Source: Sedimentisphaerales bacterium (lineage in GTDB: Bacteria; Planctomycetota; Phycisphaerae; Sedimentisphaerales; SM23-30). From it: a DNA stretch of 64,000 nt. Where the stretch lies: the NCBI GenBank assembly GCA_963663965.2, contig CAXXFK010000006.1, forward strand, positions 1-64,000. The letters are read 5' to 3'. Made by a program: the position numbers and the translations under genes. Each line of letters begins with the position of its first letter. Within the stretch, counting starts at the first letter, position 1. Shown here piece after piece: positions 45,127 to 57,145 of the stretch. The notes below the pieces were generated by a model that was not told where the DNA came from, made no database searches, and worked only from the letters and a program-made list of their open reading frames with translations.

Positions 45127-46596
45127 ATGGATGAAAAAATTACCGGCCATGCCATTACCTTTGACGATGTACTCTTACTGCCATGTGCAAGCGATTTTCT
45201 GCCACGTGAGGCGGATGTAAGGACACGCGTAACCAGAAATATAGGCATCAACATCCCATTGCTCAGTTCACCAATGGATACGGTAACCGAATCCGCACTG
45301 GCTATAGCACTGGCACAGGAAGGCGGTATTGGTATAATTCATAAGAATCTGACGATAGATCAGCAGATCCGAGAGGTTGACAAAGTTAAACGCAGTGAAA
45401 ATGGGGTGATTCTCGATCCCGTCACGCTGGGACCGGATGATTCGGTCAATACCGCGCGTAAGTTGATGACCGAACAGAATATCTCCGGGATTCCCATTGT
45501 TGATGATCAAAACAAATTGGTTGGTATCATTACCCGACGTGACCTGGCTTTTTTCAAAAACAGCGAAGATCTGGTTAAAAATGTCATGACCAGTCAGAAT
45601 CTGGTGACCAGTTCGCCAGAAACAACGATCCAGCAGGCTGAGGCGATACTCAACCAGAAAAAAGTGGAAAAACTATTGTTGATCCATCCGGATGGCACCC
45701 TGGCCGGATTAATCACCATGCGGGATATCGCCCGGGTGTATCAGTATCCCAATGCCTGTAAGGATACCCGTGGCAGGTTAAGGGTTGGCGCTTCGGTCAG
45801 TGTGCTGGATTTTCCCCGGGTGGAACAATTAATCAGTAAAGATGTCGATTTGATTGTGGTTGATTCCGCCCACGGCCATTCAAAAAATGTGCTGGAAACG
45901 GTAAAAGAGATCAAACGGAACTGGGATATCGATGTGATTGCCGGAAATGTGGCGACCTATCAGGCGGCGCGCGATTTGATTAACGCCGGCGCCGACGCCA
46001 TTCGGGTCGGGATCGGTCCCGGATCGATCTGTACCACACGGGTGGTCTCAGGTGTTGGTGTTCCACAGGTGACTGCGATTATGGAGTGTGCCAAGGCCGG
46101 CGATGAGAATGATGTTCCGATTATTGCTGATGGCGGTATCCGCATGAGCGGCGATATTACCAAGGCCATTGCGGCGGGGGCTTCCTCTGTCATGCTGGGT
46201 TCCCTGTTTGCCGGATTGGATGAATCTCCGGGCAAACTGGTGATTTATCAGGGTCGACGATTCAAGGAATATCGCGGTATGGGTTCAATGGGGGCCATGA
46301 TCACCGGCGGCGGCGCGCGCTATGGCCAGGATACCCGGGAAGCCGACAAGCTGGTGCCTGAAGGAGTGGAAGGCCGGGTGCCCTATCGCGGTACTCTGGG
46401 AGAGTATGTCTATCAACTGGTGGGCGGCTTGCGGGCCGGTATGGGCTATTGCGGCACACCCGACGTTGAATCCCTGCGGAAGCATGGCCGCTTTGTCCGG
46501 ATCACCTCTGCCAGTGTTCGTGAAAATCACCCTCATGACATTAATATTACCCACGAAGCTCCCAACTATTCGCTTCGAACTCCCCTGGAAGGCTAG
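45127..46596 (+). CDS. guaB: IMP dehydrogenase
   Basis: [15 protein letters not shown], two CBS domains, [31 protein letters not shown]. Confidence 0.97.
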
Positions 46597-46599
46597 ACC

Positions 46600-47100
46600 A
46601 TGAAAGTAAAACTAACCGGCGCTATTCTGGTAAATCTTGTTATGATCCTTTGTCTGATGGGGGGGTGTTCCCGGAGCGGTTTTTTGAAAAAACCCGCTGA
46701 AACGGTTGTACAGGATGATCCCAATTCCATCTCGATTGTTTCCCTGGATGAGAGGAACATCACATCGGCAGAATCCATTCAGCCCACCGGCCGGAATCGT
46801 CCCTGGCGTGAACAGGTGGCGTATTTTCAAATGGGATCCGTCAAGCACGAGCCCATTTATTTCACCGGCGTTTACGATGATTGTACTGAATTCCCTGTGA
46901 ACTTCCGTATCTGGAATCGTAACGATATCGAAGCCACCCTCCTCCCGCCGGCTGAATTCCTGGTGGATCTGGTATTCCTACCCTGGCAGCTTTATCGCAA
47001 TCCACCTATTGAACCGGATACCAGCCGAAGTGTCTATCCCTATGTTTCACCCTGTTATGAAATTCCGTGCATGCCCGCCAGTCTGGAATGTGGCCGGTAA
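46600..47100 (+). CDS. Hypothetical lipoprotein
   Basis: Lipobox LMGGC; starts 3 nt after the guaB stop; HEPIYF motif. Confidence 0.7.
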   Translation: MKVKLTGAILVNLVMILCLMGGCSRSGFLKKPAETVVQDDPNSISIVSLDERNITSAESIQPTGRNRPWREQVAYFQMGSVKHEPIYFTGVYDDCTEFPVNFRIWNRNDIEATLLPPAEFLVDLVFLPWQLYRNPPIEPDTSRSVYPYVSPCYEIPCMPASLECGR

Positions 47101-47104
47101 GCGA

Positions 47105-47911
47105 TTAATGTTCTCTATCAGCCCGTTCAAAGGCCTGTAATATTTTGTCCAGCGCGTCATAGGGCGTTGCGCCGATATCGACCGTAAAATGTTCCTCGGT
47201 GTTGTCAGCGGTGACAACCTGTCCATTGGTGGTCAGTATATTACAGGTTTTTCGTTTGTGACTGGTCCTGGTAATCACCTGAAACGCTGCCAGTGATGGA
47301 TGGGCCAGGAACTGGACATCCATGGCCAGCGCGCTGATCGGGTATCCGTTGCGGTTCATGCCTAATTTACTGAGTCGGATTTTAAACGTATCGGGCTTGC
47401 CCGAGAGCAGGGCTACCGACGCGTGCCGGTAATAATAATCACCCTGGGCCTGTTTATGGCCTACGCGCGCCAGTTGTTCATCCGCATCAGAGAGTTGATC
47501 GACGCCCGGACAGAACAATACTTCAGGCTGGTCGTTCAGATATTTCTGTAAGAGCAGCCCCAGGCCAACCGGATCGCCGTTTTCCAGCGATAATAAACTG
47601 GTTACATTCCCGGTAACCGTATAAAAGTTAGATCCCGTGACAGGTCGTCCACCCGGTCCAAAAGGAATCATGTCATCATAATCGCCGGCATAGACATGAA
47701 TCGCGATACCGATCTCACGCAGGTTCGAACTGCAAACCACGCGCCGGGCCTGTTGGCGGGCCTGGCCCAGCGAGGGCAGCAGAATGGCAACCAACAACGA
47801 AATAATGGTAATAACGACCAGTAATTCGATCAGGGTAAAGGCCCTCAATCGCAGGTTTCGCCGCAGGCTGAATCGGGTTGTAATATCAGGGTTCATAATG
47901 AAGCCAGGCAT
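47105..47911 (-). CDS. Prepilin-type N-terminal cleavage/methylation protein (DUF1559-like), degenerate H-X10-NG tail
   Basis: [46 protein letters not shown]. Start may be 47896. Confidence 0.9.
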
Positions 47912-48704
47912 CGATCCATAGGATCAGGTCCTGTATGTTAATGCATCGATCGCCGGACATATCGGCAGTATCGGTGTCGCAAGCGAGCCAATGAACTGAC
48001 ATTTCAGCCAGGTCGTTCAGGTTAACTTGATGGTCAAAAGTGAAGTCAGACACGGTTTCTGAGTCAAGACGAACTGCATCGATGTCCCAGAAACCACCGG
48101 GCATTCCCGTGGAACGGATGGCAATGCCAATAGGCCTGCCCGCCCAGGGATCTTCAGGTTTAACTGCCGGCAAGGCGACCGAAAAATCCTGTAAGACGCT
48201 GGAAGACAGCGTTTCAGGGGAAACAGAGTACGAAACGATTTCAATGGTATTAGGATCGTTATCCTGAAGATAATAGAGTGACAGTTTCAATGTATTAGGA
48301 CTTGTTGGGGGGAAGCGCATCGAAACCCCGACGGCTACCGTTAATTCATAGTTTTTGCCGGGTATATAGCTGGCCTGTAAAACCTGTAAAATGGCGTTAC
48401 CCTGTTCGCTGCCGATAAAGACCAGTTGACGCCCGTCGGCATTGGTGATGTGATCATTATTGGGGCTGTTCGGTTCCGGATTTAAAAAGGTTCCAGTATT
48501 CTGACTGTATTCCAGATCGACATCCAGTTCGGTCCACATCGGGATAACCGGAATGGCATAAAATGGATTGGTGATCGGATCGATTTCAGGAATTTCGAAT
48601 GAGGCGTTGGCTATTGGAATCATTTCAGAATAAACAAAATGCCCCGGTAATATCAAGAGCGCAACGAACAATAAAGTTTTTAAGAGACCAGTCTCAGAAT
48701 TCAC
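47886..48704 (-). CDS. Secreted protein with a CBM-like N-domain and a C-terminal dockerin-like pair
   Basis: GTG start with AGGAG RBS; signal peptide; [47 protein letters not shown]. Confidence 0.75.
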
Positions 48705-49117
48705 GGTAATCTCTCCTTTGAGTTTAAATTTGAAGGGATCTATCGATATTTGTGATAGTTGTGTCGGACATGAAATATCTGCTTAATAATATTGTTGTGA
48801 TCCGCATAATGCTGAAAACTTAATAAATTATATGCCTCTGAAATGGCATGTCAATTCATCCGCAATTTCAACTCAGGTAATATACTTAAGAAAAAGCTTA
48901 TCGAGGCATGATAAAACTTAGCAATAATTCATGGTAATAATCGATATGCCGCTGCCCGATAACAGGGTTCAATAAATGGATTCTTGAAGTCTGTAAATTT
49001 ATAACATGTTATAATACAATGTGTTAAGCGTCTTTAGTCTATATTGGAATCTTATGATTTAACAGGAAAGTCAACCAGGCAAAGCTGATATTAAAATACG
49101 GGTATATTACGAAACAT

Positions 49118-49145
49118 TTGATTTTTTCGCAAAGCAGACTATAAT
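49118..49145 (+). promoter_or_regulatory. Putative sigma70 promoter of ilvB copy 1
   Basis: TTGATT-N16-TATAAT. Confidence 0.55.
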
Positions 49146-49160
49146 TTAAGTAATTGTAGC

Positions 49161-49256
49161 GCTCAAAGTCTGAGCAGTCTGACCGATCTCAGTTCATGAT
49201 CAGGGCTGGTGGCCTTGTTCAGGGATGTGATCGGATGCTTATTTACGGCTTTGAGT
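49161..49256 (+). ncRNA. Candidate cis-regulatory structured RNA in the ilvB copy 1 leader
   Basis: Nested pairings CTCAAAGTC/GGCTTTGAG, TGAGC/GCTTA, CCGATC/GATCGG, AGGGCT/GGCCTT; homologous to 51125-51195. Confidence 0.6.
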
Positions 49257-49293
49257 TGGTAAATCGATGGCTGATGTAAGAAGGAGCCTAAAT

Positions 49294-51048
49294 ATGTCAG
49301 TAATTTCAAATCAAAACGGAGCCGTTGCGGCCCCGAGTCGGAATCATTATTCAACCGAACAAATGCAAGGCGCCAAAGTTCTGTATGAAGTCTTGCGTAA
49401 AGAGGGTGTCGAAGTTGTTTTTGGCTATCCCGGCGCAGTGTTGCTGCCCTTGTTCGACCTGTTCTACGATGGCCCCATCGAACTGGTGTTAAGCCGTCAC
49501 GAGCAGGGCGCGACCCATATGGCCGATGGATATGCCCGGGCAACGGGAAAGCCCGGAGTGGTATTGGTCACCAGTGGTCCGGGCGCCTGCAACACGGTTT
49601 GTGGTGTCGCGACCGCGCATCTTGATTCGGTTCCCATGGTCGTTATGACCGGACAGGTCCGGACGACTTCTATTGGCAATGATGCGTTTCAGGAAGCCGA
49701 TATCACCGGTATTTCGCGTCCGATCACCAAACATAATATGATTATCAAATCGCCCGATGAAGTGGCCCGCTCCATGCACGAAGCCTTTTATCTGGCGCGT
49801 ACCCGCCGTCCGGGGGTGGTTTTAGTCGATCTGCCGGCTGATGTCCTGGGCGGTCAATCCGGTACTGAGGATATCGGTTATGAACCGGATCTACCCGGAT
49901 ATAAACTGCCTGGATCTGCCAATATCCGTCAGGTCAAACGGCTGGCTGAGGCTCTGAATCAGGCGGAAAAACCTGTCATTTATGTGGGTGGGGGAGTGAT
50001 CATTTCCGGCGCTTCCAATGAGGTTCGCCAACTGGTTGCCAAAGCCAACGCGCCGGTCACCACGACATTAATGGCGCTGGGCGCAGTGGATGAATCGGAT
50101 TATCATTCACTGAATATGCTGGGTATGCATGGAACCGCTTACGCCAATTTCGCCGTACAGGAATGTGATCTGCTGGTATCAATCGGCGCCCGCTTCGATG
50201 ACCGGGTAACAGGCGATGTCAAACGGTTCGCCCCCCATGCCACGATTGCCCATATCGATGTGGATCCTTCCAGTATCTCCAAGAGCGTTAAAGTCGATAT
50301 CCCGATTGTCGGTGATGCCAAATCCGTGCTGACCGAGTTGTTGCCGTTTGTCGAAACCAAACCGCGCAAAGCCTGGTTCCAGTGGATTGATGATCTTAAA
50401 CGGACTCATCCGCTGAGTTATGAAACCAGGGGTGAAAGTATCAAACCGCAGGCGGTTATTGAGGAAATCAGTCGCCAGACACAGGGCAATGCCATATTAA
50501 CCACCGGTGTCGGTCAGCATCAGATGTGGGCCGCACAGTTCTATCAATTCAAATATCCTCGCCATTTTCTTTCTTCCGGCGGTCTGGGCACCATGGGCTA
50601 TGGTCTGCCTGCCGCGATTGGCGCTCAAATCGCTTTTCCGGACAAACAGGTGATCTGTATCGAAGGCGATTGCAGTTACAGCATGACCTTAAACGAACTG
50701 CCTACTGCCGTTGAAAACAAGCTGCCGGTTAAGACCTTTGTTTTAAACAATGGCTATATGGGTATGGTTCGCCAGTGGCAGGAACTATTCTATGGCCGGC
50801 GTTATTCGAAAAGCCATATGCAGCATCCGAGTTTTGCCAAAGTGGCCCAGGCCTTTGGCGCGGTCGGAATCGAAGTTCGCAAAGCCAGTGAATTGCCGGC
50901 CGTCATTAAGCAGGTTCTGGCCGAGAAGCGGCCTTGCGTAGTCGATGTCTTCGTCGAAACCGAAGAAAATGTCTGGCCGATGGTGGCCTCCGGCAAGGCG
51001 CTTGACGAGATGGCCGGGTTGGCTGTTTCAACCATTGAACCGATCTGA
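49294..51048 (+). CDS. ilvB: Acetolactate synthase large subunit, copy 1
   Basis: [75 protein letters not shown] before ATG 49294. Confidence 0.93.
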
Positions 51049-51063
51049 TCAGTTTGTTTTAAC

Positions 51064-51091
51064 TTGTCTTATCGCAGATTTATACTATACT
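51064..51091 (+). promoter_or_regulatory. Putative sigma70 promoter of ilvB copy 2-ilvN-ilvC
   Basis: TTGTCT-N16-TATACT. Confidence 0.5.
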
Positions 51092-51124
51092 TATTGGTTT
51101 AAATTCTTTTGAGTTTGCATCCTG

Positions 51125-51195
51125 TGAGCCAATTATCCGTATCCATCTCATTGCCGCGGCCTGGCTGGCCCGGTGCGGGGAGATACGGCCGCTCG
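51125..51195 (+). ncRNA. Candidate cis-regulatory structured RNA in the ilvB copy 2 leader
   Basis: TGAGC/GCTCG, CCGTATC/GATACGG, GCCG/CGGT, GGCC/GGCC; same length and architecture as 49171-49241. Confidence 0.6.
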
Positions 51196-51267
51196 TGACT
51201 TAAATGCTTATTGCGTAATAAGATACAGGTGCATGTCTTGGAAGCTGTTTTTTGTAAGGAGTCAGTT

Positions 51268-52983
51268 ATGACCGACAAAACAAATGTATCGCCGACGATG
51301 ACCGGAGCAAAGGTTCTGGTTGAGTCTCTGCGTCGCGAAAATGTCGAAATGATTTTCGGCTATCCTGGCGGAGTTGTGCTGCCGCTTTTCGACGAGTTGT
51401 TCGACGGCCCGTTCAATTTTATTCTGACGCGTCATGAACAGGGCGCTACCCATATGGCCGATGCCTATGCCCGCACGACCGGCAAGGTAGGTGTCGTGCT
51501 GGTGACCAGCGGCCCCGGCGCCTGTAATACCATCACCGGTATTGCCACGGCTTTTATGGATTCAGTACCTATGGTGATTATCACCGGGCAGGTAAAAACC
51601 TTCATGATCGGTAATGATGCGTTCCAGGAAGCCGATGTGACCGGCATAACCCGTCCGATAACCAAACATAATTTTATAATTAAGGATCCCCGTGATCTGG
51701 CTCGCACTGTGCACGAGGCGTTTCATATTGCCCGTACCGGCCGACCCGGTCCGGTCCTGATCGATCTGCCGGTGGATGTGACCACTGCACAGGCTCCTCT
51801 GGGACGTGGATCGGAAGATATTGACCTGCCCGGTTATCATCCGCGTACTGAAGGGCATATGAGACAGATCAAGCGGGCTGCCGAGGCGATTAATGCCGCA
51901 GAGCGGCCAGTCGTTTACTCCGGTGGCGGGGTCCTCAGTAGTGGGGCTTCACAGGAACTCCGTGATCTGGTAAACAAGGCCAATATGCCTATCACCACCA
52001 CGCTGCTGGGCCTGGGCGCTTTTGATGAAAATGATCCCAAATCGCTGCATATGCTGGGAATGCATGGCACGGCCTATGCTAATTTCGCGGTACAGGAGTG
52101 CGATCTTCTCATCGCCATAGGCGCCCGTTTCGATGACCGCATTACCGGTGATGTCAAACGGTTTGCCCCCAATGCCCGGATTATTCATATCGATATTGAT
52201 CCCACCAGTATCTCTAAAAGCGTTAAAGTGGATATCCCGGTCGTGGGCGATGCCCGCAATATTCTGCAACTGTTGATTCCCCTGATTGTGTATCGGGAGC
52301 GAACACCCTGGTTTGCCCGCGTCAACGAATTAAAACAGAAATATCCGCTGACCTACGATAATAGTGGCGAAGGAATCAAGCCCCAATATGTCATCGAAGA
52401 ACTCAGCCGTCAAACCGCGGGCAAGTCGATTATTACCACCGGCGTTGGTCAGCACCAGATGTGGACTGCGCAGTATTACCGGTTCAATCAACCGCGTCAT
52501 TTTGTCAGTTCCGGCGGTTTGGGGACGATGGGATTTGGTTTCCCCGCGGCGATTGGCGCCCAACTGGCCAATCCGGACGCTCAGGTGATCTGCATCGATG
52601 GCGACAGCAGTTTCAGTATGACGCTTTTTGAACTGCCAACCGCCGTGGAGCATAAATTGCCGGTGAAAGTCTGTATCCTGAACAATGGCTATATGGGCAT
52701 GGTCCGGCAATGGCAGGAGTTGTTCTATAACAAGCGTTATTCCAAGAGCTATCTGAAACATCCCTGCTTTGCCAAAGTGGCTGAATCGTTTGGCGCGGCA
52801 GGTTATGTCGTTGAAAAGAAATCCGAAGTCCCGGTCACTATTGAGAAAATGCTCAAAGAAGACCGGTGCTGTGTGGTCGATTTCCATATTGAGCCGGAAG
52901 AGAACGTCTGGCCGATGGTGGCGGTGGGCAAAGGATTGCATGAAATGTCAGGCTTGCCAACCTCCGATAGCGAAAAGGTTTGA
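51268..52983 (+). CDS. ilvB: Acetolactate synthase large subunit, copy 2
   Basis: FGYPGG, RHEQGA, TGRPGPVLIDLP, GARFDDRITG, MVRQWQ; AAGGAG RBS before ATG 51268; directly followed by ilvN. Confidence 0.95.
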   Translation: MTDKTNVSPTMTGAKVLVESLRRENVEMIFGYPGGVVLPLFDELFDGPFNFILTRHEQGATHMADAYARTTGKVGVVLVTSGPGACNTITGIATAFMDSVPMVIITGQVKTFMIGNDAFQEADVTGITRPITKHNFIIKDPRDLARTVHEAFHIARTGRPGPVLIDLPVDVTTAQAPLGRGSEDIDLPGYHPRTEGHMRQIKRAAEAINAAERPVVYSGGGVLSSGASQELRDLVNKANMPITTTLLGLGAFDENDPKSLHMLGMHGTAYANFAVQECDLLIAIGARFDDRITGDVKRFAPNARIIHIDIDPTSISKSVKVDIPVVGDARNILQLLIPLIVYRERTPWFARVNELKQKYPLTYDNSGEGIKPQYVIEELSRQTAGKSIITTGVGQHQMWTAQYYRFNQPRHFVSSGGLGTMGFGFPAAIGAQLANPDAQVICIDGDSSFSMTLFELPTAVEHKLPVKVCILNNGYMGMVRQWQELFYNKRYSKSYLKHPCFAKVAESFGAAGYVVEKKSEVPVTIEKMLKEDRCCVVDFHIEPEENVWPMVAVGKGLHEMSGLPTSDSEKV

Positions 52984-53047
52984 TGATCATAAAACTGAAA
53001 TCGGGCCGAAAGACCCGCTGACAAGATAAAGATAAAAAGGAATAACC

Positions 53048-53533
53048 ATGAAAAGGACAATAAGCGCATTAGTTCAAAATAAACCCGGGGTACTGGCGCA
53101 TGTAGCCGGTATGTTCGCGGCTCGTGGATTTAATATCGATTCGCTGGCCGTTGGCCGCACCGACGACCCCAATTTAAGTCGCATGACGATTGTTGTGATT
53201 GGCGATGACAGTGTGATCGAACAGGTTCGTAAACAGTTGGGCAAGATCATACCCATTGTCAAAGTGTATGATTATACCGCAGAACGCCTGGTTCAGCGTG
53301 ATCTGATGTTGATTAAAGTTGCGGCTACTCCGGACAAACGGCCGGAAATTCAGTCTCTGGTTGAAATGTTCCAGGGGCGCGTGGTTGATATTGATCCCCG
53401 TTCGGTCGTTGTCGAAATTGCCGGACCGGAAGAAAAAATTGAAGCCTTTATTGACATGTGCCGCCCCTATGGAGTAAAAGATTTGGTCAGAACCGGCATG
53501 ATTGCCATGCCGCGCTATAGCCGCGAGGGATAA
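53048..53533 (+). CDS. ilvN: Acetolactate synthase small (regulatory) subunit
   Basis: LVQNKPGVLAHVAGMFAARGFNIDSLAVG, SRMTIV, QLGK, LVRTG. Confidence 0.95.
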   Translation: MKRTISALVQNKPGVLAHVAGMFAARGFNIDSLAVGRTDDPNLSRMTIVVIGDDSVIEQVRKQLGKIIPIVKVYDYTAERLVQRDLMLIKVAATPDKRPEIQSLVEMFQGRVVDIDPRSVVVEIAGPEEKIEAFIDMCRPYGVKDLVRTGMIAMPRYSREG

Positions 53534-53602
53534 CCTGCTTGTGGCCAGGACGCGGTTTTAAATATAACTCTTTTAATTTGCTATACTTAAGGAGTATAAA
53601 GC

Positions 53603-54607
53603 ATGAGCGCTAAAATTTATTACGAAGCAGACGCACCCAAAACGGCTCTCGAAGGAAAGACCGTTGCGGTGATCGGATACGGCAGCCAGGGCCATGCCCA
53701 CAGTCAGAATCTGCGTGATAGTGGTATCAATGTGGTCGTAGCCGAACTGGAAGGCACCGCCAATTACAAACTCGCAAAGGAACATGGTTTCAGCCCGTTG
53801 ACTGCGGATGAGGCCGTCAAACAGGGTGACTTGATTATTATTACACTGCCTGATGAAGTGCAGGCCAAAGTCTACGAAGCCGCCATCAAGCCCAACCTCA
53901 CCGCAGGTAAAACCCTTGGATTCTGTCATGGCTTCAATATTAACTTCAAATACATTGTGCCTCCGGCCGATGTGAATGTGGTGATGATCGCGCCCAAAGG
54001 TCCCGGCCATCTGGTTCGCAGCGAATATGAAAAGGGCGGTGGCGTCCCTTGTCTGATCGCTGTTTATCAGAATCCCGGCGGCAATGCCAAAGAGATTGCC
54101 TTGTCCTGGGCCAACGGTATCGGCGGCGCCCGTGCCGGTATTATCGAAACCACCTACCAGGAAGAAACGGAAACGGACCTCTTCGGTGAGCAGGCAGTGC
54201 TGTGTGGTGGTCTTTCCGCGCTGATCAAGGCCGGTTTCGAAACCCTGGTCGAAGCCGGTTACCAACCCGAAATCGCCTATTTCGAATGCATGCATGAAGT
54301 TAAATTGATCGTCGACCTGATGTATAAGGGCGGCATCGACTACATGCGTTACAGTGTCAGCAACACAGCCGAATATGGTGACCTGACCCGTGGTCCGCGA
54401 GTGGTTACTGAACAAACCAAAGCGGAGATGAAGAAAATACTCGGCGAGATTCAACGCGGTGAATTTGCCCGGGAATGGGTGGATGAATATAAGAATGGCT
54501 GCAAGAACTTCAACGCGCTTTATCAGAAAGACAAAAATCACCCCGTTGAAGTTGTCGGGCGTAAATTACGCAAGATGATGGCCTGGATCGATGCTAAGGA
54601 AGTGTGA
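53603..54607 (+). CDS. ilvC: Ketol-acid reductoisomerase
   Basis: [61 protein letters not shown]. Confidence 0.97.
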
Positions 54608-54657
54608 TGGGAACAGAGCGGCTTTTAGCCGTTTCGTTTCGATTACATTCGAGTTTT

Positions 54658-54694
54658 GGGCCCCTGTTCTTTATTGTGACGGGGGCTCTTTATT
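54658..54694 (+). terminator. Intrinsic terminator after ilvC
   Basis: GGGCCCCTGT...ACGGGGGCTC followed by TTTATT. Confidence 0.6.
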
Positions 54695-54726
54695 GTTACC
54701 GGTTGATGATGTGAGTTGAGTGGATC

Positions 54727-55035
54727 ATGACTAATCAGGAAGAAAAATTTGAAATAGTCGAACCCATTGGCAAGCGTGTCTTGATCCGTAAGGATGAAGA
54801 CAAAAAAGAGACCAAAGGGGGGATTCGGCTGCCGGACAATATCGAAATTCCCACGATTACCGGGCGGATCATGGCAGTATCGGCCGAAATCGAGAACGAT
54901 CCACTTCTGCCGCTCAAACAGTATGACAAAATCCTGTTCAATCCCAAAAATGCCATCCCGGTCGATTTTGAAGGTGATAACCGTCTGTTCGTGATCGAAC
55001 TGGAAAATATTGTGGCTGTCTTTCGCCGGAAATAA
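54727..55035 (+). CDS. groES: Co-chaperonin GroES family protein (no adjacent groEL)
   Basis: EPIGKRVLI..ETKGGIRLPD..GRIMAV..DKILF..IVAV. Confidence 0.8.
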   Translation: MTNQEEKFEIVEPIGKRVLIRKDEDKKETKGGIRLPDNIEIPTITGRIMAVSAEIENDPLLPLKQYDKILFNPKNAIPVDFEGDNRLFVIELENIVAVFRRK

Positions 55036-55058
55036 CCGGCTTTTTGGAAAGGGATGAT

Positions 55059-55934
55059 ATGAAACGTCTTTGCGTCCTGATCGTGCTGGTTTGTCTGGCG
55101 CCAGTGGCCCGGGCCTGGCATGGCGAAGGGCATCAGGTGATTACACAAATCGCGGTGCGGCATCTCCCTGGGGAAATGCCCGCTTTTTTTCGTGAAGGCG
55201 CTCTGACGATCGCCGATGCTTCCCTGGATCCGGATATCTTTAAAAAACCGCTTTGTGCCGATGAACTCCACGCGACGGAATACCCCGAGCATTTCCTCGA
55301 TCTGGAATTACTCAAAGGCAATCCCTTGCCGGCCAATCGTCAACAATTTACCGAGTTGTGTTTTCGCATCGAGGCCCGGCCGGACAAGGTCGGCACACTG
55401 CCCTGGGCCATTCTCGAAGGCCAGCAACGGCTGGCAGTCTGTTTTGCCGAATATCGCCAGTGGCCCGAAAATCCGCTGGTACAGGCCCGCACCTTGATTT
55501 ATGCCGGTCTGCTGGCCCATTATGCCCAGGATCTCTGTCAGCCGCTGCATACCACGGTCAATTATGATGGCATTGTTCACCCCGATGGCGCCAAATTGCA
55601 TAAGGGAATCCACCGGAATGTCGATGCCCTGCCCGGCAAATTCAGCGATCCAAACTCAATAGGATTGCCTCCCATGGAATCGATTCAGTCGGATGTATTG
55701 GGCGCCATCAAGCGGCAGTTGATGGATAGCCATCAGCTGGTTTCCGAGTTATACCGGCTGGCGGATTCGATTCCAGCACAAAAGGATCCTATTGTACCGG
55801 ATAGCGCCGCCGATGCGCTCACTCGTCAATATATTACCTGTTCCGCCAGTTTTACTGCCCAACTGTATTGGGCCGCCTGGCAGCAATCCGAAACGATCGA
55901 AATACCCGCCTGGCATTGTCGCCAGGCGCCATGA
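55059..55934 (+). CDS. Secreted S1/P1 nuclease (Zn phospholipase C/P1 fold)
   Basis: Signal peptide ending ARA-W; WHGEGH, PD, HFLD, HYAQDLCQPLH, GIH. Confidence 0.82.
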   Translation: MKRLCVLIVLVCLAPVARAWHGEGHQVITQIAVRHLPGEMPAFFREGALTIADASLDPDIFKKPLCADELHATEYPEHFLDLELLKGNPLPANRQQFTELCFRIEARPDKVGTLPWAILEGQQRLAVCFAEYRQWPENPLVQARTLIYAGLLAHYAQDLCQPLHTTVNYDGIVHPDGAKLHKGIHRNVDALPGKFSDPNSIGLPPMESIQSDVLGAIKRQLMDSHQLVSELYRLADSIPAQKDPIVPDSAADALTRQYITCSASFTAQLYWAAWQQSETIEIPAWHCRQAP

Positions 55935-55951
55935 AATTATGGAGAAGCCTT

Positions 55952-57145
55952 ATGAAACAGTTAATGATTATACTGATGATGCTGATGTTGGCTATTTATG
56001 GTTGCAAACGGACCACTGAACCGGAAACCGGGCCGCAGGATCAAACCCCGACGCCATCAACCCATACACCGGAAACAATAGAAACGCCAGCGCCGGTGGA
56101 TGCCGACGATTCTAAAACAGAGGAAACAACGGTCTCCGAACCGGAAAGCGGTCAGATCGGCTGCAAAGCGACTCCCCTGGATGGTCTGGAATGGGTCAAA
56201 GGCCAGCCGGTAACCATCACTCCCGGAAATATCTATGTTGTGGAATTCTGGGCGACCTGGTGCGGTCCCTGTCGGACCAGCATCCCACATCTGACCGAAT
56301 TACAGAAAAAATACGCTGATCGCAAAGTGACCTTCGTCGGGGTTTCCAATGAAACACTGGACGAGGTGAAGCCGTTTGTTGAAGAACAAGGCGATAAGAT
56401 GAATTATGCCGTGGCGATCGATCCGGATGGTAAAGTGAACGCCGGGTATATGGAAGCTTTTAAAATAGGCGGGATTCCGAATGCGTTTCTGGTGGATGCC
56501 AGTGGGCATATCGTCTGGCAGGGTCATCCGATGGGGGATCTGGAGTCGGTTCTGGAACAGGTGTTGGCCGGCAATTTCGATTACAGGGCTTATGAAAAAA
56601 AGAAGCAGGATGAAATTGCCGAGCGTCAGGCTGCGATTAGAAAGGCCCAGGAAGAATTTGACAATGCAATCGCCGCGATGGACGCGTTAATCGAAAAAGA
56701 GCCCGCCAATCCCGCTCATCGGGTCAAACGGGCCGAAACCTGGCTGGGGGAAAGTTTCGTTACCGATTTGCGCTACCGTCCGGAATATCTGATGAAGGCC
56801 CTGGAGGATTATAAGACAGCCTTGGCCCTGGATCCGCAGGATCCTCTGAAAGTGGCTGACGATATTGCCTTCTTTAAGGCCTGGCAGGGGGCCGAAGACG
56901 CCAGAATCCCGGCGTTGAAAGCCTTTGTTGAGCAATATCCGGACAGTATCCGCAGTCCTTTTGCTCACTATGCCCTGTATTATGATGCGCGTACCAAAGG
57001 AAACCTTCAGGAAGCGGTCGATCATCTTAGTGTTATGGAAAACGCTAAATTAAGCGAGGGGTTTGCCACGTTTGTCGTTAAAACGAAAGAACAGTTGGTT
57101 AACCAGATTCAAAATGTTCAGGAGAATGCCGGACAGGTTGAATAA
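55952..57145 (+). CDS. TlpA/redoxin-family lipoprotein with a C-terminal helical (TPR-like) region
   Basis: Lipobox IYGC; VVEFWATWCGPC; GIPNAFLVD..WQGHP. Confidence 0.85.
   Translation: MKQLMIILMMLMLAIYGCKRTTEPETGPQDQTPTPSTHTPETIETPAPVDADDSKTEETTVSEPESGQIGCKATPLDGLEWVKGQPVTITPGNIYVVEFWATWCGPCRTSIPHLTELQKKYADRKVTFVGVSNETLDEVKPFVEEQGDKMNYAVAIDPDGKVNAGYMEAFKIGGIPNAFLVDASGHIVWQGHPMGDLESVLEQVLAGNFDYRAYEKKKQDEIAERQAAIRKAQEEFDNAIAAMDALIEKEPANPAHRVKRAETWLGESFVTDLRYRPEYLMKALEDYKTALALDPQDPLKVADDIAFFKAWQGAEDARIPALKAFVEQYPDSIRSPFAHYALYYDARTKGNLQEAVDHLSVMENAKLSEGFATFVVKTKEQLVNQIQNVQENAGQVE

Follow-up and report, generated by a model that had tools for sequence, protein, structure and literature searches.

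The window analysed here is a stretch of 64,000 nucleotides from a Sedimentisphaerales bacterium (Planctomycetota; Phycisphaerae), corresponding to positions 1 to 64,000 of contig CAXXFK010000006.1 (assembly GCA_963663965.2). It contains two tandem genes, ilvB1 and ilvB2, both encoding biosynthetic acetolactate synthase large subunits, with ilvN and then ilvC located downstream. A preliminary description of the sequence had proposed that a 71-nucleotide structured leader RNA precedes each ilvB gene. The features of this locus are listed below; type A denotes the leader form of the window's family and type B that of the other families of the order.

49118..49145, forward strand: promoter of ilvB1, sigma70-like (TTGATT-16-TATAAT), by consensus match, with equivalents in relatives
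49161..49256, forward strand: rod of leader copy 1, from the MFE and centroid folds, enclosing the 71-nt core
49161-49170 with 49247-49256, forward strand: outer stem P1 of copy 1, 10 bp; the homologous type-A stem covaries at 8/8 pairs
49171..49241, forward strand: 71-nt core of copy 1 (P2, asymmetric loop and P3 irregular hairpin)
49242-49246, forward strand: 3' bulge of copy 1, from the fold
49264..49288, forward strand: conserved 3' block of copy 1, from an HMM match and pattern scans
49294..51048, forward strand: ilvB1, encoding an acetolactate synthase large subunit; a diverged paralogue with 67% identity to ilvB2
51064..51091, forward strand: promoter of ilvB2, sigma70-like (TTGTCT-16-TATACT), by consensus match only
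51094..51100, forward strand: TTGGTTT, 5' strand of copy 2; the equivalent strand of relatives forms helix P0 with the start codon of ilvB
51125..51195, forward strand: 71-nt core of copy 2, from the fold and its likeness to copy 1; undetected by models R1 and R3
51196..51264, forward strand: putative expression platform of copy 2, from folds of one sequence only
51268..52983, forward strand: ilvB2, encoding an acetolactate synthase large subunit; identity to the orthologues of the family 69-77%
53048..53533, forward strand: ilvN, acetolactate synthase small subunit
53603..54607, forward strand: ilvC, ketol-acid reductoisomerase

Both ilvB genes fall inside the clade of the family (support 98), in a quick version of the protein tree that did not settle whether they are sisters. 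The tandem arrangement is present within one contig in two runs of one sample, possibly the source sample, and genome G045 also carries two full ilvB genes in tandem. The ilvB1 gene (49294-51048) has a long branch (0.61) and altered conserved motifs (GYPGAV for GYPGGV and EGDCS for DGDSS), so its product may differ in substrate preference or the gene may be decaying. At other loci (L027, L048, L055, L203, L204, L206, L208, L212 and others) the leader and ilvB are separated by a short, degenerate second ilvB N-terminus, likely a relic of tandem duplication. A hairpin with a T-rich run, likely a terminator, is found 3' of ilvC (54597-54694), and a GroES-like gene is next (54727-55035). Sigma70-like sites are indeed present upstream of each leader copy, as first described, but their number is near chance, with 10 sites in the promoter scan versus 9.3 expected; the promoter calls of the window therefore rest on the relatives. 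A promoter score of at least 10 on an ad hoc scale was obtained for 86 of 98 type-B leaders.

The two cores (49171-49241 and 51125-51195) are exactly 71 nt long, with the sequences originally reported, and each folds as one irregular hairpin, with energies of -27.7 kcal/mol for copy 1 and -31.8 kcal/mol for copy 2. Both folds share a basal stem (GAGC/GCTY) and a 6-7 x 2 internal loop, and the extra base pair noticed in the second stem (CCGATC/GATCGG versus CCGTATC/GATACGG) was confirmed. Shuffled sequences folded as well in 6/200 cases for copy 1 and in 5/200 for copy 2, the fold of the latter being begun at 51126 (z about -2.1). The likeness between copies is modest (28/71 ungapped identities), and their global alignment score was equalled by 3 of 19,995 random 71-mers of the genome. 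An HMM made from the two copies detected no third one in the genome at E below 1, and the type-A model R1 gave one strong genome match. The copies are therefore not a dispersed repeat.

The proposal of a 71-nt unit was correct for the hairpins and too narrow for the element, since the hairpins are the core of a full leader of 150-190 nt located 5' of ilvB(N)C in the Sedimentisphaerales. Beyond its core, copy 1 adds the 10-bp outer stem and the conserved block 49264-49288, where a 3-4 bp hairpin, GGC(T)/(A)GCC, carries the Shine-Dalgarno (SD) sequence in its loop. In copy 2 the core and the 5' TTGGTTT (51094..51100) are retained, and the partner of TTGGTTT at the start codon has been lost. In its putative platform an anti-SD segment (51196-51201) can pair with 51259-51264, the SD sequence AGGAG being at 51257-51261; alternatively, 51225-51233 would form the 3' strand of an outer stem. 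The two predicted folds have energies of -52.6 kcal/mol (SD partly free) and -52.3 kcal/mol (SD paired to 51196-51201), with the core unchanged. After inclusion of 25 coding bases, the fold with the SD partly free was the more stable by 4 kcal/mol.

Orthologues of ilvB were identified in 56 of 61 genomes, and the upstream DNA of 29 loci and 20 further regions was inspected. This comparison has shown a predicted long kinked rod of nearly fixed length between promoter and start codon. The rod consists of a basal stem, a 3' bulge, a 4-bp P2, an asymmetric loop and P3, which is about 22 bp long. Most genomes also have a closing helix, in which the 5' end is paired with the start codon in type A and with the SD region in type B. 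NUGGUUU, the 5' strand of type A, is paired with the sequence that leads to the start codon and with the start codon itself. The other parts of type A are a basal stem containing an A x CGA loop, an 8-bp P1, a 5-6-nt 3' bulge, P2 (GAGC/GCUC), an asymmetric loop, P3 (about 22 bp) and the conserved 3' block, which has invariant unpaired nucleotides and the SD within its hairpin loop. In type B the rod is the same; its closing helix, CCUGA/UCAGG, lies over the SD region, and there are two small side hairpins. Its most conserved nucleotides cluster around a four-way junction and few are conserved in P3. A G occupies the centre of the apex in 87% of type B. Both rods align colinearly, two type-A rods are weakly matched by the type-B model (E 0.0015 and 0.0056) and genus g5 seems to be intermediate, which suggests that types A and B are homologous, and they were treated as such. 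The conserved junction nucleotides are not the same in the two types, and few of them remain in either window copy. In several relatives (L029, L045, L057 and L028) the rod alone is kept beside the SD.

Covariation of the stems, which the pairing-preserving differences between the window copies had pointed to, was strong in both types. In type A (34 rows) pairing was 87.9% versus 71.9% after shuffling, with scores of 0.489 and 0.205, and in type B (100 rows) the values were 89.8% versus 74.6%, with scores of 0.497 and 0.234. The real pairing was reached by 0/500 shuffles, a test inflated by kinship, and slid controls were far lower (score 0.05-0.15). The alignments used (A5 and A9) were fitted to the models and lean towards them; unfitted MAFFT alignments gave the same excess over shuffles and slid controls. 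The closing helix was paired in 91.5% (type A) and 98.5% (type B), with two-sided changes at 5/8 and 2/5 pairs, respectively. The top mutual-information pairs coincide with the proposed stems. A pseudoknot or loop-loop contact was also considered and rejected, as the top 45 MI-APC pairs hold no well-paired long-range pair outside the model. The core measures 64-74 nt in 33 type-A rows and 62-73 nt in 96 type-B rows (four of the 100 rows, with a core outside 50-80 nt or branched, being left out), and its apex is 30-38 nt away from the base in types A and B alike; the sequence drifts. The type-A counts given below for 33 or 32 rows leave out L240, a chance match.

As a rule the leader occurs once per genome, and its distribution is order-wide. 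R1 matched 18 of 25 genomes of the window's family, once each, 17 of them being training rows and G007 the new one. The type-B model R2, built from 21 training rows, matched 117 of 151 genomes of the order (two only weakly) and none in the window's family. The link with ilvB, expected by the preliminary description, was found in the relatives. The ilvB N-terminus follows in 98 of the 100 loci to which the type-B alignment was restricted, and the other two run to contig ends. Of 14 matches of the type-A 3' pattern in 185,579 genomes, 13 are directly 5' of ilvB, as are 18 of 20 in metagenomes. Among the 80 loci listed in the type-B pattern scan, 55 are strong R2 matches, and ilvB lies no more than 500 nt away in 51 of these; the remaining 25 loci all lack ilvB. 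Outside the order, R2 gave one weak match in 131 genomes of other orders, with no ilvB nearby, and 0/151 in a phylum sample that had no known positive. Four weak R2 places within the order (L172-L175) are without ilvB and were treated as chance, and the leuA-like and ilvD genes of the window's own genome gave no model match. In G007 (L083 1500-2325) the leader, with compensatory changes, is kept before ilvN-ilvC and ilvB has gone from the locus; a short remnant lies in between, and the best ilvB match of that genome (45% identity) is on another contig.

R1 and R2 matches were found before no gene outside the ilv operon, which bears on the idea of a constitutive processing or stability element, for instance a substrate of RNase III. 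Cleavage of such an element would open or destabilise the message, without any sensing of amino acids. The leaders of E. coli adhE and pnp are precedents for elements of this kind. A P3 of about two helical turns with free sequence would suit such a function, as would the retention of the element where no start codon adjoins. An element of this kind is nevertheless improbable here, since it needs neither invariant junction nucleotides nor a helix aimed at the start codon, and no association with a single operon.

Copy 1 is a clear type-A member, by sequence comparison, through its outer stem and 3' block: an HMM of 17 relatives without the window rows detected the block with E 9.7e-7, rank 1 in the genome. 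Its closing helix has been lost. Copy 2 was missed by R1, by the joint A+B rod model R3 and by the hairpin HMM, and it is counted as a member because of its position, its geometry and its resemblance to copy 1. The HMM of the relatives' hairpins matches neither window copy. A geometry filter derived from the relatives passes 24 of 1949 genome candidates, both copies included, and the copies are the first and third most stable of those 24. R3 (42 rows, without window rows) is weak, with 9 bits for copy 1 (E 0.28 in 2.2 kb), and its search of 151 genomes of the class gave nothing new.

No existing Rfam family accounted for the leader in the scanned part of the window or in the loci of relatives. 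In positions 46000-56000, Rfam 15 gave three matches, all with E 2 or worse; in 20 loci of relatives a single tRNA was found at the gathering cut-off, and one tRNA plus weak chance matches at E up to 5. The T-box model RF00230 gave no match in the window's own genome, in line with the earlier statement, whereas the positive control matched in 5/14 genomes. An intrinsic terminator is equally absent from the leaders, a T5 run 3' of the rod being present in 0/33 type-A and 4/100 type-B rows. The original claim of no terminator U-tract agrees with the terminator scan, which flags none, but copy 2 does have a T6 run (51248-51253). The absence of a convincing branched-chain amino acid (BCAA) leader peptide was also borne out, since codon runs match those of shuffles in 18 type-A and 100 type-B leaders; the same test found runs of 4-7 in 8/24 ilvB leaders of sister orders. 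No reading frame is conserved in type B (34/30/28). The UGA of the type-B 5' strand was tried as a uORF stop and discarded, with an in-frame start in 38/66 rows and unrelated peptides. The proposal of an undescribed conserved leader tied to ilvB, distinct from Rfam families, T-boxes, terminator attenuators and BCAA-rich uORFs, is thus supported.

In other Phycisphaerae orders, Val-rich leader peptides (often VVVL-stop) are encoded 5' of ilvB (L198, L201, L202, L207, L211, L212, L215 and L218), and L198, L201 and L202 have a terminator-like hairpin, as in classical attenuation. Four further conserved-looking structured ilvB leaders without evident uORF were observed in families f17 (L200, L203, L204, L205 and L208), f18 (L210 and L220), f10 (L209 and L216) and f12 (L214, L219, L221 and L222), and each could be another new motif. 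No relevant Rfam match was found in the 14 sister-order ilvB loci scanned.

These Val-rich peptides would favour a minimal uORF reduced to a start and a valine codon, in which a ribosome stalled at codon 2 for lack of valyl-tRNA would cover the 5' strand of the closing helix and free the ilvB start, with the rod as spacer or timer. ATG, GTG or TTG followed by a Val codon is present at the 5' strand in 27/32 type-A rows (L232, which is cut, being also left out), two rows with third-position changes (GTA and GTG) break a pair and keep Val, copy 2 reads TTG GTT TAA, and a start-like triplet precedes a Val/Ile-like triplet in 71/95 type-B rows. These triplets, however, are explained by complementarity, to the start-codon context in type A and to hairpin H1 in type B, and the start is lost with the pairing kept in 24/95 type-B rows. 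There is no SD upstream, peptide length varies from 2 to 54, and the arrangement is absent from copy 1; together with the lack of type-B frame conservation and BCAA-run enrichment, this makes such a uORF quite improbable.

Two tRNA-related details of the preliminary description were not supported. A Leu codon at the same loop offset was found in 2/33 type-A rows (one of them the window's own) and in 3/96 type-B rows, and the apical UGG, present in 6/33 and 29/96 rows, is unconserved. BCAA codons in the loop occur in 15/18 type-A leaders versus 12.5 in shuffles (64 of 1000 shuffles as high) and in 79/96 of type B versus 78.5, without enrichment. The string UGGNACC appears in 4/33 type-A rows, aligned at a paired rod base, and in 0/100 type-B rows. 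A non-T-box RNA sensing uncharged tRNA-Val/Ile directly would have a hinged rod following the L-shaped tRNA, with a basal GUU/AUU reading the anticodon and the apex meeting the free CCA end. The fixed rod length, the G at the apex centre of most type-B leaders and the triplets at the base (Val or Ile in 97/100 type-B rows and GUN in 29/32 type-A rows) fit this model. Nevertheless, any R-U-N triplet is Val, Ile or Met, the basal triplet is base-paired in the model with a partner that differs between types, and the scarcity of the apical UGG, the lack of long-range covariation and the T-box result also count against it, so tRNA reading is very improbable.

A metabolite riboswitch, in which valine, isoleucine, leucine, a 2-oxo acid or ppGpp at the rod-base junction would stabilise the closing helix, has more in its favour: conserved nucleotides around the type-B four-way junction, invariant unpaired nucleotides in the type-A 3' block and covarying structure 5' of functionally uniform genes. 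The closing helix is also marginal, as aptamer-closing helices often are. To our knowledge, there is no validated riboswitch class for valine, isoleucine, leucine or their 2-oxo acids. On the other hand, the two types have different junction nucleotides, most of which the window copies no longer carry, and the leader is present in one copy per genome in a single order, a narrow single-locus kind of motif that, as argued in PMC10272879, is less often a riboswitch. The ykkC/ppGpp model RF00442 gave no match in the window's own genome or in the loci of relatives, with the control matched in B. subtilis. A riboswitch is therefore unlikely. The broader reading that the leader senses BCAA supply directly, without uORF or protein, as a riboswitch or a non-T-box tRNA-reading RNA that replaced the Val-rich attenuator used by sister orders, is doubtful.

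From the sum of these data, the leader is very probably a lineage-specific cis-regulatory 5' element of the ilvB-ilvN-ilvC operon. How it would work can be proposed only tentatively. A factor, most likely a protein, would bind the rod and recognise it mainly by its shape; this would stabilise the closing helix, which is marginal (the anti-SD helix in copy 2), translation initiation would be shut when BCAAs are plentiful, and Rho-dependent polarity would extend the effect to ilvN and ilvC. The rod, constant in size and free in sequence, is kept everywhere, including both window copies, which retained it while losing the closing helix, and this favours protein shape recognition. Such recognition, itself somewhat short of an even chance, was ranked above a metabolite pocket, processing, a start-Val uORF and tRNA reading, in that order. 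No candidate protein binding the leader was found. CsrA targets carry GGA in hairpin loops near the SD; a csrA gene is present, and an apical GGA occurs in 17/33 type-A rows and 5/96 type-B loops.

Masking of the ribosome site by this helix is thermodynamically marginal in the models, with a predicted occupancy of low median value (0.25 in type A and 0.13 in type B) and a cost of opening the initiation region of 7-9 kcal/mol, inside the range of eight control genes (3.8-16.9). Moreover, in 26 of the 92 type-B leaders considered (8 of the 100 rows left out) the helix is not beside the ilvB start, 24 having short or relic ORFs and two lacking ATG, so pure translation control would be insufficient and control of the operon would need polarity. 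C exceeds G downstream of the leader in 84/92 type-B leaders, a modest skew that 13% of 1054 control genes also reach; these leaders come from kin that are not independent, and the skew is absent from the window copies (0.07 and -0.09). This skew and the presence of a rho gene are consistent with polarity and no proof of it. A second rho-like gene, below the family cut-off, was observed at G000:C25:215941-217065.

Among known systems, the closest are the ilvB uORF attenuators ilvB-II (Corynebacterium), ilvB-OMG and the Leptospira ilvB motif which, according to PMC10272879, PMC11109978 and PMC8632094, are also structured leaders of narrow clades, found once per genome and always before ilvB, and carry an in-frame BCAA-rich uORF, with a terminator stem as well in ilvB-II. 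The present leader differs from them in having no BCAA-run enrichment, frame conservation or conserved U-tract. T-boxes (RF00230), including translational ileS T-boxes, have a long irregular stem, a specifier codon in a loop and an unpaired UGGN bulge. A long irregular stem of conserved length before an amino-acid biosynthesis operon and possible SD sequestration are common to both, but the leader has no Rfam match, conserved loop specifier codon or conserved unpaired UGGN bulge. Ribosomal-protein leaders and E. coli thrS are protein-bound translational operators. The livJ motif of Streptomyces is BCAA-related, according to PMC11109978. It and these operators resemble the leader in an SD in or beside the closing stem and, under the mechanism proposed here, in BCAA-related or feedback logic and a shape read by a partner, and differ in gene, clade and fold. 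The ppGpp riboswitch (ykkC subtype 2a) controls ilvB in Firmicutes, according to PMC10272879. The regulated gene is the same and no uORF is needed, whereas the leader lacks an RF00442 match and occurs once per genome.

Three earlier ilvB riboswitch candidates came to resemble leader-peptide attenuators, as stated in PMC10272879. The leader studied here fails the leader-peptide test that sister orders pass, which makes it a clean candidate for another mode of control of BCAA synthesis. Planctomycetes are not mentioned in the main text of PMC11109978 and PMC8632094, as far as these were covered, and no work on Sedimentisphaerales riboswitches or planctomycete ilv attenuation was found in the open literature, although supplementary motif lists may hold this RNA. 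It is apparently an undescribed, order-wide folded leader RNA of the ilv operon, with more than 130 distinct aligned representatives (34 + 100 rows) and strong covariation. Should it turn out to be no more than a processing signal or an operator bound by a protein, it would still be a new order-wide regulatory RNA in Planctomycetota, a phylum with little known RNA regulation.
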